Made by a program: the position numbers and the translations under genes
In this document: one piece after another, positions 2,418 to 63,195 of the stretch
Layout: each line of letters begins with the position of its first letter
Position numbering within the stretch: the stretch's first letter is position 1
Sequence record: MK327944.1
Length of the DNA: 64,000 nt
Source: Escherichia phage vB_EcoM_G2540-3
Direction: 5' to 3' (one strand)
Notes under the pieces: generated by a model
Told to the model about the DNA's origin: nothing
What the model saw: the letters and a program-made list of their open reading frames with translations, nothing else
Databases searched by the model: none

Positions 2418-2447
2418 ATTATACCACATCCTTGTGGTAAAGTAAAC
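2418..2447 (-). promoter_or_regulatory. T4-type early promoter (before rIIA.1 and rIIA)
   Basis: Minus strand GTTTAC, 18-nt spacer, TGGTATAAT. Confidence 0.65.
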
Positions 2448-4267
2448 TACTGGCTCATCCATTCTTTACGAAGGTCAGCATTATCTCCCATGAGCATTTC
2501 AAAAAGCTCTTTCCAGTTCTCAGGAAGTTTAACAACATCATATACTGGATTTTGAATCATCTCACGATATTCAGATTTTTCCAAAGAGCCAAGTCCTTTA
2601 ATATAACGGATGCTATGTTTAGGTAGAGCATCTTTAGCACTCTCATATTCAGCGACTGTATAAAACCATTCTTGTTTTTTACCAATCTGTGCGATGATTA
2701 CAGGAGTTTTGACAAAGCGAATTCGTCCTTGCTCAAACAGTTCTGGCCAATTACTAAAAAATCCAAGCAGAGAAGGATAAATGCTTCCTAGACCATCATG
2801 GTCAGCATCAGTCATAATAGCAATATTATGATAATTCAAGTTTTCAGCTTTTTCACCGAGAACTAATCCAGTGATTGCGCAAATATCAAACAGTTCTTTG
2901 TTTTTAAGCATGTCAGCATATGACATACCCCAACTGTTGAGAACTTTACCACGTAATGGATAACCACCGTGAAGTTCTTTATCACGAACATCAATAAGAT
3001 ATCCGATAGCCGAATCACCCTCAGTCAAGAAAAGAGTAGTATCAGCATCTTTACCACAAAGATTCGCTTTAATATGTTTATGAACCTTAGCTTTAGAAGC
3101 CTTTTTAGCTGCTTTAGTTTCTGCTGCTTTTTCTGCCGCTAATTTACGAGCCAAAGCAGCTTCAATAATCGGCATTAGAATTGCTTCATTATTTAGAATA
3201 GCACGTGAAATCTTTTTAGCATCAAGTTGAATATGACTACGGATTTCACCAAATGGAGAAGTCAAACGCTCTTTAGTTTGAGAATCAAATCGCATGTTTT
3301 TCATATCACGGACAAACATAACGATAGTCAAACATTCTTTAACGCGTGCTTTAGTCACATCAATTTTGAACTTACGTTTGATTTGTGGAATAAGGTCTTC
3401 ACAAATATCATCCATAACACAGTCAATGTGATGGCCACCATTCTTAGTGTGAATGTTATTCACATAAGTTAATTGACGAAAACCATCCGGTGAACGACCA
3501 ACCGCAATAGAGCAATTTTCTTGTTCTTGAACGATAGCATGCTCATCATATTGGCGTGCATATTTCTTAAAATTGCCCTGAACCTTTTTACCATTAAAGG
3601 TAAATTGAATATCAGGATAAACTACTGCAAGTGTCTGGAGACGATCTAGTGTAATGTCAAGATAAACTTGGGACAGCTCATTAGTTTCAAATGACATAAA
3701 ATCAGGAATGAAAGTAACGCGAGTTCCTTTCCATTTTCCTGGAATAGTTTCCCATGATTTATTTTCCATGCCATTTGAACAACGAACTACAATATTATTT
3801 TGACCATCACCAGTTTCACCGACAAACATCACAGAAAAAATGTTTGTCAAACTAGAACCAACACCATTCATACCACCGGTGACGCGTTCTTTATCATCAC
3901 CGAAGTTACCACCTGCTTTTGGAATAGTCCAGGCAGCAACAGGACCAGGAATTTCTTCACCAGTAGGTGTTTTGACCATCGCTTGTGGAATACCGCGACC
4001 GTTATCTTCAACTGTTACTTGATTGTTTTTAATAGTAATATTAATTTTATTTGCGAATTTAAACTTAGTACGAATACCTTCATCTACTGAGTTATCGATA
4101 ATTTCATCAATAAGCTTAACAAGACCAGGTACATACTGAACACTTTCCCATTTACCAAACAGAAAGCGCTCATGCATTTCATTAGCAGAAGAGCCAATAT
4201 ACATGCCGCTACGCTTTTTGATATGTTCAATATCGCTCAGAATTTTAATTTCATTCTTAATCATCAC
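2447..4267 (-). CDS. 39: DNA topoisomerase II large subunit gp39 (GyrB-like ATPase) with gp60-equivalent region fused, 606 aa
   Basis: GHKL ATPase motifs (IIDNSVDEG, EDNGRGIP) and TOPRIM-like region; a single 606-aa ORF equals T4 gp39 plus gp60, as in T2/T6. Confidence 0.9.
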   Translation of the reverse strand: MMIKNEIKILSDIEHIKKRSGMYIGSSANEMHERFLFGKWESVQYVPGLVKLIDEIIDNSVDEGIRTKFKFANKINITIKNNQVTVEDNGRGIPQAMVKTPTGEEIPGPVAAWTIPKAGGNFGDDKERVTGGMNGVGSSLTNIFSVMFVGETGDGQNNIVVRCSNGMENKSWETIPGKWKGTRVTFIPDFMSFETNELSQVYLDITLDRLQTLAVVYPDIQFTFNGKKVQGNFKKYARQYDEHAIVQEQENCSIAVGRSPDGFRQLTYVNNIHTKNGGHHIDCVMDDICEDLIPQIKRKFKIDVTKARVKECLTIVMFVRDMKNMRFDSQTKERLTSPFGEIRSHIQLDAKKISRAILNNEAILMPIIEAALARKLAAEKAAETKAAKKASKAKVHKHIKANLCGKDADTTLFLTEGDSAIGYLIDVRDKELHGGYPLRGKVLNSWGMSYADMLKNKELFDICAITGLVLGEKAENLNYHNIAIMTDADHDGLGSIYPSLLGFFSNWPELFEQGRIRFVKTPVIIAQIGKKQEWFYTVAEYESAKDALPKHSIRYIKGLGSLEKSEYREMIQNPVYDVVKLPENWKELFEMLMGDNADLRKEWMSQ

Positions 4268-5152: not shown

Positions 5153-5566
5153 TTATTCCTTAAAGTGAGCTTTCAACATCTGATACAAGGACCATGCCTG
5201 TTCATCATTTTCAATAGTAACTTTCATTACAGGGAATTTAGATTGATCAGTTATCGGTGCAGATTCTTCCTGCTCTTCAGCTGCCTGGTATGGATTTTCA
5301 ACTTCATTAAAGAATTCAGCTTCATTCGATGAAAGCCAAATAAAATCTTCATCCAAAATATCTTTACCAGAAGATAGTACTAAATTTCCAGCAAATGACA
5401 TAATTTTAATAGGACGCCCAAGAGCATCCACATCTAAAATTTTAAAAGGATGCATACCTAAACGGCGTGCATAGATTCCGTTATCAGTATGGTCTTTAAT
5501 AAAATTTTCTTGAGCTTGTTTATTTTTAAACTGATACCATTTATTAACTTCAAATTTAATAGCCAT
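5153..5566 (-). CDS. hypothetical early protein, 137 aa (occupies the T4 goF position by synteny)
   Basis: ORF only; the synteny-based name is a guess. Confidence 0.5.
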
Positions 5567-5781
5567 TAATAAATTTCCTTCCAGTAAGTTGTACCATCTT
5601 CAGTGATTTCACGAAATACACCGTAAATTGGTTGTTTATCCCCAACCTTTTCATACACATAAACCGAAGTCAAGTGAGTAAACTTAGCAGTGTGTTCCTT
5701 TTGAACTACTACCAAATCTGGATCGAATAACACATCTTCAAATTCGTCATTAGTGCAGTTCTGAACAATTTTACGTTTCAT
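5566..5781 (-). CDS. hypothetical early protein, 71 aa (occupies the T4 cef position by synteny)
   Basis: ORF with RBS GAGGAAA; same size as T4 cef but not verified. Confidence 0.5.
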
Positions 5782-5953
5782 TACAATTTCCTCGTTAATT
5801 GAACATTGGAGCGATGCGTTTCAGAAGAGTAGCAGCACCTTTGGCAAATTTTCCATTTTATTCTCCAAATTATTTTCTATATCAGTAGTTGATATTGATA
5901 TAGTACCATAATCAACTACTGATGTATATAGTTTTATGAAAAAATTTTAAACT

Positions 5954-6445
5954 TTATGCATAGCGAGCTTTGCTGTAGTGTTTAATCCAACTTTCAGGAA
6001 TGACTTTGTATGTTCCTAAAAATACCGCGTTGTATAACTTAACGCCATCTTCTACCCATTGATCAGTAATGTATGCACACATAGCGCGAGTACGCTGAGG
6101 AAGTGGTTGTCCACCTTCGGTAAATTCAAACTCATAAGGAGCAATGAACTTGATAGCTTGACCAAGTTTCCACTTAAAGTCTACACCTACATGCGAAGTA
6201 TCAATCGTTTCAATTCCTTTAGCAGGAACAGCTTTCAAAAACGCAGGCTCAAGAAATTTCCATCGAACATAACCAAACTGGGGCTTAGACATTCCATCTT
6301 TAGCAATGATACGTACTTTTACTTCAGAATCTTCATCTTTAACACCATGTTTAAGCTGAATGCTTACAACTTCGACCAATTTTCCTGCTGCTTTAGAACG
6401 GGATTTATCAGATACACGAGCAATTTCACCGATATTAATATTCAT
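5954..6445 (-). CDS. hypothetical early protein, 163 aa; paralogue of the disrupted gene at 6518..7066
   Basis: C-terminal segment AYITDQWVEDGVKLYNAVFLGTYKVIP resembles the out-of-frame segment of the neighbouring gene; early promoter at 6490..6519. Confidence 0.6.
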   Translation of the reverse strand: MNINIGEIARVSDKSRSKAAGKLVEVVSIQLKHGVKDEDSEVKVRIIAKDGMSKPQFGYVRWKFLEPAFLKAVPAKGIETIDTSHVGVDFKWKLGQAIKFIAPYEFEFTEGGQPLPQRTRAMCAYITDQWVEDGVKLYNAVFLGTYKVIPESWIKHYSKARYA

Positions 6446-6489: not shown

Positions 6490-6519
6490 ATTATACTCTG
6501 GTCCCAAGAGTTTGTAAAC
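6490..6519 (-). promoter_or_regulatory. T4-type early promoter
   Basis: Minus strand GTTTAC, 18 nt, TATAAT; upstream of 5954..6445. Confidence 0.6.
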
Positions 6520-26475: not shown

Positions 26476-26505
26476 ATAGTACCATGGAAGAACAAGGATG
26501 TAAAC
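26476..26505 (-). promoter_or_regulatory. T4-type early promoter with conserved leader module
   Basis: Minus strand GTTTAC, 18 nt, TACTAT, followed by ACAACTATCAACTGATGCGGATTTGGAGAATGAA-ATG. Confidence 0.6.
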
Positions 26506-52903: not shown

Positions 52904-52933
52904 ATAGTACCATAAAGCTTTATGCTTGTAAAC
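52904..52933 (-). promoter_or_regulatory. T4-type early promoter with conserved leader module
   Basis: Minus strand GTTTAC, 18 nt, TACTAT, followed by ACAACTATCAACTGATACGGATTTGGAGAATAAA-ATG. Confidence 0.6.
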
Positions 52934-63165: not shown

Positions 63166-63195
63166 ATACTATCACAATTCTAGGAGAAAGTAAAC
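63166..63195 (-). promoter_or_regulatory. T4-type early promoter (denV)
   Basis: Minus strand GTTTAC, 18 nt, TAGTAT. Confidence 0.55.

Follow-up and report, generated by a model that had tools for sequence, protein, structure and literature searches.

The element between motB (5954-6445, minus strand) and cef (5566-5781, minus strand), genes that lie 172 nt apart, is an early-promoter cassette of the T4 family whose -10 hexamer lies in the loop of a conserved hairpin, and the 11-codon open reading frame (ORF) that follows it can be traced to a deletion in a gene that is intact in many relatives. The element belongs to a kind already described and is not a novel control device, namely that the odd arrangement of promoter, hairpin and mini-ORF is made of ordinary parts, a known cassette type and a deletion scar. 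The window, which here means the whole 64-kb stretch of DNA that was analysed, is throughout a Tequatrovirus (T4-like) genome beginning at rIIA, and its minus strand is the early-gene strand. Over the segment 5400-6600, the window matches Escherichia phage vB_EcoM_G2540 at 100% identity and about 560 T4-like phages at 90-99%. The ribosome-binding site (RBS) of cef, GAGG, lies at 5793-5790 and its start codon at 5781-5779 (minus strand), while the next promoter upstream of the motB-cef element is that of motB, with its -35 starting at 6519 (minus strand); a terminator scan of this strand found no terminator-like site between the two. Elsewhere in the window, 2447-4267 (minus strand) is a single 606-aa ORF for the topoisomerase II large subunit, which T4 encodes in two pieces, genes 39 and 60, separated by mobA and 60.1.

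The promoter half was identified through its likeness to the early promoters of the same genome. The pattern GTTTAC-N18-TAnnnT has 19 matches on the minus strand of the window, and 21 GTTTAC/TAnnnT matches were counted over both strands with spacers of 16-19 nt, against 3.4 expected; judged from the sequence, these sites are the early promoters of the phage. With a weight matrix trained on the 19 canonical sites, each taken with 25 nt of upstream and 12 nt of downstream sequence, the motB-cef element scored 26.2 bits and ranked 18 of 127,866 positions, the best other non-training site in the window reached 6.9 bits, and in leave-one-out scoring the element exceeded several canonical family members. 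Its A/T-rich upstream block TTTAAAATTTTTTCATAAAACT (5930..5951, minus strand) stands where T4 early promoters have their UP-element-like block, is near-identical to its counterpart AAAAATTTTTTCACAAAA in the canonical paralogues at 52933 and 26505, and contributed +10.8 bits (family mean, +7.8). Within the hairpin loop, TGGTACTATA (5908-5899, minus strand) holds a TGn motif (5908-5906) and the -10 hexamer TACTAT (5905-5900), the same hexamer that the annotation of the T4 motA early promoter gives as its -10 signal; it scored 6.9 bits (family mean, 7.0), and the bases downstream added +6.3 bits. The deficit of the element is therefore restricted to the -35, the UP block, -10 and downstream parts being about at or above the family mean: in place of the family consensus GTTTAC(A) stands ATATAC (5929-5924, minus strand), with -3.3 bits versus a family mean of +11.3, lying 18 nt upstream of the -10, the spacing found in the canonical promoters. 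Read alternatively as TATACA (5928-5923), the -35 has a 17-nt spacer and agrees with TTGACA at 4 of 6 positions. TGgTACTAT, the 18-nt spacing and the A/T-rich block are features of the Pe class, and both the T4 motA early promoter and the 26505 and 52933 paralogues can be aligned with the element. The original prediction had described 13-bp arms, a -10 between them, an off-consensus -35 and a possible copy of a conserved leader module, and all of these were recovered, the last through this alignment and the matrix rank. By sequence, membership in the early-promoter family is established. From the usual sigma-70 spacing, a transcription start at about A5893, 7 nt past the -10, is a reasonable prediction; the accessible literature yielded no mapped start and no named early promoter between motB and cef.

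Downstream of the -10, the element continues into the leader of the family. The sequence of the 3′ arm of its hairpin is the same as the leader after the T4 motA promoter, and the paralogues at 52933 and 26505 carry a near-identical leader that lacks 'ACT' only; none of these three promoters has a spacer complementary to its leader. The leader ends in the Shine-Dalgarno GGAG followed by AATAAAA (5856..5866, minus strand), and GGAGAATAAAA at 5866-5856 is an exact match to GG*AGRAYARAA, the strong consensus for sites of the RegB endoribonuclease in T4 early mRNAs (PMC3014915). This stretch is unpaired in the centroid fold, and the GGAG of the leader is a putative RegB cleavage site. In phage EC.W2-9 (PP445230; L055, 81-175), a canonical GTTTAC promoter at another locus carries the leader ATCAACTACTGATACAGAAAACAACTTGGAGAAT, which is identical to the T4 and T2 motB-cef leaders, while the leader of the window differs from it at three positions; this is consistent with a swapping of promoter/leader cassettes between loci.

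The element has been kept in the relatives that have the same flanking genes. Its 74-nt core shows at least 95% identity in 493 of 521 relatives' records, versus mostly 90-95% identity for the flanking 1.2 kb, and the sole -10 variant seen, TATTAT in JE01, still reads TAnnnT. Among the members of other genera that were examined, Moon-, Jiaoda- and Gelderlandvirus and most unassigned contigs retain GTTTAC upstream of cef, and off-consensus hexamers stand there in Dhakavirus (GTATAC), Mosigvirus (ATGTAC) and Yersinia phage MHG19 (TTGTAC), namely that a deviation of the TATACA/TGTACA type recurs in these three; the -10 and TGn are retained in most. Deletion of host dksA increases early-promoter output, and in the corresponding T4 RNA-seq cef and goF were raised 1.33-fold and 1.34-fold, with motB at 0.96-fold (PMC6024815 and its Table S1). 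As cef and goF respond to the loss of dksA and motB does not, a functional promoter in the gap is favoured, although the indication is an indirect one. The T4 RNA density across the motB/cef boundary is flat (32.6 vs 32.8 reads per nt; PMC6024815 Table S1), which speaks against strong termination at the boundary and equally against a strong added promoter. Therefore the suggestion that the copy might be decayed is at odds with its near-invariance in about 490 relatives, the recurrence of the same -35 deviation in other genera, and the dksA response of cef and goF.

The hairpin is formed by a 5′ arm ATCAGTAGTTGAT (5923-5911, minus strand), which fills the promoter spacer, and a 3′ arm ATCAACTACTGAT (5893-5881, minus strand), with which the conserved leader begins; the arms are perfect 13-bp complements separated by a 17-nt loop, where an inner 5-bp helix is predicted between UGGUA (5908-5904) and UAUCA (5900-5896). 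The RNA fold has -20.2 kcal/mol with z = -6.1, the antisense fold has -20.9 kcal/mol with all pairs of the Watson-Crick type, and the DNA hairpin is predicted at -11.5 kcal/mol. The repeat is the longest of its type (perfect, 3-40 nt loop) in the window, but 20 of 200 dinucleotide-shuffled versions of the 64-kb sequence also contained a perfect 13-bp inverted repeat with such a loop, so that length by itself is not significant and was dropped as stand-alone evidence. Since repeat length proves nothing, the case for the hairpin rests on its position and on comparison with relatives. At random real positions, the probability that the best repeat between a 24-nt and a 30-nt block reaches at least 11 nt was 0.0005, and it is very unlikely that the repeat was placed over the promoter -10 by chance. 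Little sequence information resides in the promoter spacer or in the first transcribed bases, the two parts in which the arms lie. With its 5′ arm in the spacer, the hairpin cannot be complete in RNA initiated at the motB-cef promoter: given a start near 5893, the promoter's own RNA would have the 3′ arm only, and the full hairpin would form only in read-through RNA from the motB promoter (6519). The hairpin ends 14 nt upstream of the GGAG and covers no RBS. Its stem is A/T-rich, with 4 G:C among the 13 pairs, and is followed by AUAGAAAAUAA without a U-run, so that the G+C-rich stem and U-run of an intrinsic terminator are both missing, and the terminator scan of this strand found none here. 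An Rfam scan of 5500-6300 stayed far below threshold: its best hits scored 21.2 bits against a threshold of 65 and 11.2 bits against one of 40 (E-values, 0.3-0.9).

A hairpin spanning the -10 occurs in the promoter upstream of cef in at least eight Tevenvirinae genera, with differing arm sequences; the carriers are the Mosig-, Dhaka-, Moon- and Gelderlandvirus phages examined, MHG19, and several Tevenvirinae contigs of unassigned genus. The orthologue set was assembled from a profile-based scan of viral contigs, which added 5 loci, and from GenBank phages picked individually. Of the 20 orthologous cef promoters (the window counted), 17 have their -10 enclosed or overlapped by a perfect 6-13 bp stem, the arms of which are unrelated in sequence, as in AGGGCTAT/ATAGCCCT, GGTGTAGGAG/CTCCTACACC, GGTAGGAGC/GCTCCTACC, TTGATGAGACCAT/ATGGTCTCATCAA and others. 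The three exceptions are Mosigvirus ATK47, with a stem mismatch, Jiaodavirus GF, with a weak stem, and locus L021, where the stem is replaced by a different, terminator-like hairpin over the -35. In a gapless alignment anchored on the promoter hexamers only, 8 of the 13 stem pairs had changed on both sides, compensatory cells numbered 25 versus 10.2±2.6 in shuffles (0/500), and the covariation score was 0.300 versus at most 0.161 when the partners were slid. Raw counts of G·U versus A·C over all cells of this alignment carry no information, as many sequences are unpaired in the outer columns, and sense and antisense fold energies were used instead. The register of the stem differs among the Tequatrovirus sequences examined, MHG19 and Dhakavirus; what persists is therefore a hairpin at this place, not given columns. 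Across 12 Tequatrovirus sequences, not one of the 26 arm positions is substituted, whereas variation is seen in the loop, in the leader and at the end of motB. Additionally, Gaprivervirus EAWsc9 has lost both the -35 and the -10 and has kept a stem, TGATAGGG-TTTTTG-CCCTATCA, between motB and cef, which indicates a role of the stem separate from the promoter. An A-run precedes this promoter-less hairpin (838-868 of the EAWsc9 locus, L049), so that the opposite strand reads as a textbook intrinsic terminator, a stem and then TTTTTATAAT. Conservation and covariation of the hairpin are thus established at the level of the alignments, and the comparative data, in the form of compensatory changes, register shifts, survival without a promoter and the sense bias of the sister elements described below, provide unusually clean evidence for selection on the pairing of the stem-loop itself.

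The 11-codon ORF has a different history. As originally described, GGAGAATAAAATG opens the frame MENLPKVLLLF (5856-5821 including the stop codon, minus strand); the distance from its stop codon to the cef ATG at 5781, given there as 60 nt, is 39 nt (5820-5782). In T2 and 261 related records, an intact 270-nt gene for an 89-aa protein (phrog_3720) lies between the promoter and cef, and it is present in about half of the Tequatrovirus relatives and absent from the rest; in L004 the gene lies at 696-965, and a Pfam search with the 89-aa product gave no match. At the position of the ORF, T2 reads ATGGAAAAC...(208 bp)...GTAAAATTCGC, and a 208-bp internal deletion is common to T4, the window and the other relatives of the deleted type, with its junction, ATGGAAAA|TT, in the AAAA run at 5852-5849. 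The 3′ remnant of the gene (5795..5851, minus strand) can no longer be translated; its old frame, KFAKGAATLLKRIAPMFN and a stop, agrees with the end of the T2 protein, ...VKFAKGAATLLKRIAPLFN and a stop, at 17 of 18 residues. The deletion shifts the frame, so that the ATG now yields 11 unrelated codons. Among the relatives the stub reads MENLPKVLLLF, MENSLKVLILF or MENLLKVLLLF, and in two genomes, where a one-base difference at the junction shortens it, MEIR*; in other genera the promoter stands directly in front of cef and the stub is absent. No conserved alternative terminator/antiterminator structure was found over the stub (weak folds lie downstream, in sequence not kept in T4), and the scan gave no terminator-like site there. 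From the comparison of the records, the deletion origin of the ORF is established, and because of this origin, the variable peptide, the absence in other genera and the lack of a conserved structure, the stub is a scar and not a leader peptide. The proposal of leader-peptide control is accordingly unsupported, and recognition of the scar spares hundreds of T4-like genomes a mistaken annotation of a leader peptide.

The motB-cef hairpin has sister elements at other early promoters of the window. Among 20 early promoters, the 60 nt that begin at the -35 fold at -17 kcal/mol or lower in 9, as against 1.8% of random windows (P = 2e-11). The eight others, all on the minus strand with -35 starts at 63195, 60583, 55566, 51494, 20410, 19922, 7626 and 6519, have hairpins that span the -10, with -17 to -24 kcal/mol over 60 nt and far weaker antisense folds. 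For the ten promoters at -15 kcal/mol or lower, the sense strand averaged -19.3 kcal/mol versus -13.1 kcal/mol for the antisense strand (p = 0.004), and G·U pairs are used; the greater stability of the sense strand points to an RNA structure, not a DNA palindrome, in this hairpin class. As the motB-cef hairpin is symmetric, with Watson-Crick pairs throughout, this argument rests on the sister elements. At 63195, 60583, 51494 and 7626, the 3′ arm pairs with the Shine-Dalgarno of the next gene, so that read-through RNA would be translationally masked there. The hairpin of the motB promoter (6490-6519, minus strand; CTCTTGGGACC...GGTCCTGTGGAG) buries a GGAG other than the motB RBS, which may be a structure-protected RegB motif. 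A terminator-then-promoter layout, with a GC-rich CUUCGG-loop hairpin and a T-run just upstream, is seen at the promoters 56377, 52933 and 14855 (minus strand), which lack a strong hairpin over the -10; -10 hairpins were thus found at 0 of 3 promoters with an upstream terminator versus 9 of 17 others, numbers too few for significance. Weak matrix hits at about 14018 and 23442 (minus strand) read AGGGTTA...TAACCCTAT and TTACCCTATC, resembling the arms of the cef hairpins of other genera, and may be middle promoters or additional hairpins. It is possible, and we propose it tentatively, that hairpins spanning the -10 are a systematic, selected feature of about half of the T4-type early promoters, which would exist in read-through RNA only, so that each transcript would be marked by the promoter it came from: read-through copies would carry a barrier and, at some genes, a sequestered RBS, while the promoter-proximal copies stay open. 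The motB-cef hairpin, maintained through covariation across the subfamily and surviving in one genus without a promoter, would be the clearest example. If so, they would constitute a genome-wide layer of early post-transcriptional control.

Based on these findings, we propose that the motB-cef element is a composite 'promoter-early stem-loop' (PeSL) cassette of a T4-like phage, an explanation that we consider probable. The host sigma-70 RNA polymerase would start early transcripts at about 5893, using the A/T-rich upstream region, the extended -10 TGgTACTAT and the weakened -35 TATACA, and the transcript would carry the conserved leader of the family, ending in the RegB-cleavable GGAG RBS. This RBS formerly served the 89-aa gene, and with most of that gene taken by the 208-bp deletion, the promoter would now serve cef (and goF). 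Read-through RNA from the motB promoter would form a stable intercistronic stem-loop, which could shield the 3′ end of the motB message once the A/U-rich leader or the RegB site has been cut, and could dampen read-through, perhaps through mild attenuation. On the read-through RNA, the hairpin is thus most likely a barrier or attenuator at the motB/cef boundary, and strong termination is unlikely given the A/T-rich stem without a U-run and the flat T4 RNA density. An RNase III site was also considered as the role of the stem and set aside, since the orthologous stems, at 6-10 bp, are too short for this enzyme.

Several other explanations have to be weighed against the PeSL reading. The promoter half might be a non-functional relic, with the RNA hairpin alone under selection and cef transcribed solely by read-through from motB; the degenerate -35, the flat T4 RNA density from motB to cef and the loss of the promoter but not the hairpin in the Gaprivervirus examined would all fit such a history, which we nevertheless regard as unlikely, because about 490 genomes retain the UP-like block, TGn and -10 (with the JE01 variant still TAnnnT) and most other genera the -10 and TGn, deletion of dksA affects cef and goF and not motB, and poor -35 elements are tolerated by extended -10 promoters (PMC2988021). 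Alternatively, the inverted repeat might act as double-stranded DNA, either as an operator for a dimeric phage or host protein or as a supercoil-driven cruciform hiding the -10. The perfect symmetry of the stem about the -10, its equal folding on both strands and the predicted stability of the DNA hairpin could be taken in this sense. However, the arms differ completely between genera and among the nine hairpin promoters of one genome, which leaves no common recognition sequence for an operator protein, G·U pairs occur in the sister elements, whose antisense folds are much weaker, the extrusion of a cruciform is disfavoured by loops of 6-17 nt, and the Gaprivervirus stem persists with no promoter to regulate; a function at the DNA level is accordingly quite improbable.

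That the repeat is a chance match, or a neutral and functionless product of template switching at a quasi-palindrome, is a further reading: 10% of the shuffled windows hold a perfect 13-bp repeat, T4 is a classic system for palindrome-templated mutation, and the 5′ arm looks like a spacer rewritten to match a pre-existing conserved leader. Yet such an origin is hard to reconcile with orthologous, covarying hairpins in many genera, with 26 arm positions free of substitution in 12 Tequatrovirus sequences whose neighbouring leader and motB 3′ end vary, and with the enrichment of hairpins at early promoters, and we consider it very improbable. Finally, the 11-codon ORF could regulate cef as a leader peptide or upstream ORF, through attenuation or translational coupling. 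Its translation is very probable from the strong RBS and ATG, and it lies 39 nt upstream of cef in the same frame; but it arose by deletion in a gene that is intact in 261 related records, its peptide is unconserved down to the MEIR* of two genomes, other genera, with the promoter immediately before cef, lack it, no conserved alternative structure lies over it, and cef has a GAGG RBS of its own. A regulatory role of this ORF is therefore improbable in the extreme, and the PeSL cassette with a deletion scar remains the preferred reading.

Compared with known systems, the motB-cef element most resembles the PeSL cassettes, in which an A/T-rich block, a sigma-70-type early promoter, a stem-loop, and a Shine-Dalgarno with ATG are combined as they are here, where the hairpin of -20.2 kcal/mol over the -10 is followed by GGAG and ATG. 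Both also recur through the genome with about 60-100 bp of similarity and lie in variable regions adjoining insertion/deletion polymorphisms: the motB-cef element has paralogues at 26505 and 52933 and another copy in EC.W2-9, and the presence/absence polymorphism of 208 bp is directly downstream. In RB49/phi1, the stem-loops lie mostly between -35 and -10 or overlap the -10 (Arbiol et al. 2010, PMC2839356), which is the placement found here, and one of them reduced the expression of a downstream reporter to the degree seen with a known terminator (PMC2839356). The PST/T4 consensus TTTACW-N17-TAYWAT is matched at the -10 and at 5 of 6 positions of the -35. The differences are that the T4/PST stem-loops were drawn just upstream of the promoter (Comeau et al. 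2014, PMC4122927), whereas that of motB-cef spans the -10; that PeSL stems are of the G-run/C-run type, whereas this one is A/T-rich and without a U-tract; that PeSL deletions run between two cassettes, whereas the junction here is inside a gene with AAAA microhomology; and that T4 RNA-seq shows no drop in density across the motB-cef hairpin. The T4 motA promoter (GenBank Z48569) shares with the element the -10 TGGTACTAT, the first transcribed bases ATCAACTACTGATACAG, the A/T block AAAAATTTTTTCACAAAAC and a leader with a GGAG RBS, but it has the consensus GTTTACA, a spacer that is not complementary to the leader, and a separate GC-rich terminator hairpin upstream.

The GGAGAATAAAA stretch, a candidate site, resembles the RegB sites of T4 early mRNAs in sequence and in its position at an early translation-initiation region. 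In T4 e, soc, 49 and I-TevI, the RBS is sequestered in read-through RNA and free in transcripts from a promoter inside the hairpin, these promoters being late or middle ones. The motB-cef element is likewise a promoter inside hairpin-encoding DNA whose own transcripts would lack the 5′ arm, but the hairpins of those four genes cover the RBS, whereas that of motB-cef does not. The promoter spacer offers a concrete and easily mutated site at which intercistronic hairpins on early T4 mRNAs can be probed. The comparison adds to the described cassettes that in T4 proper such hairpins often span the -10 rather than sit upstream of the promoter.
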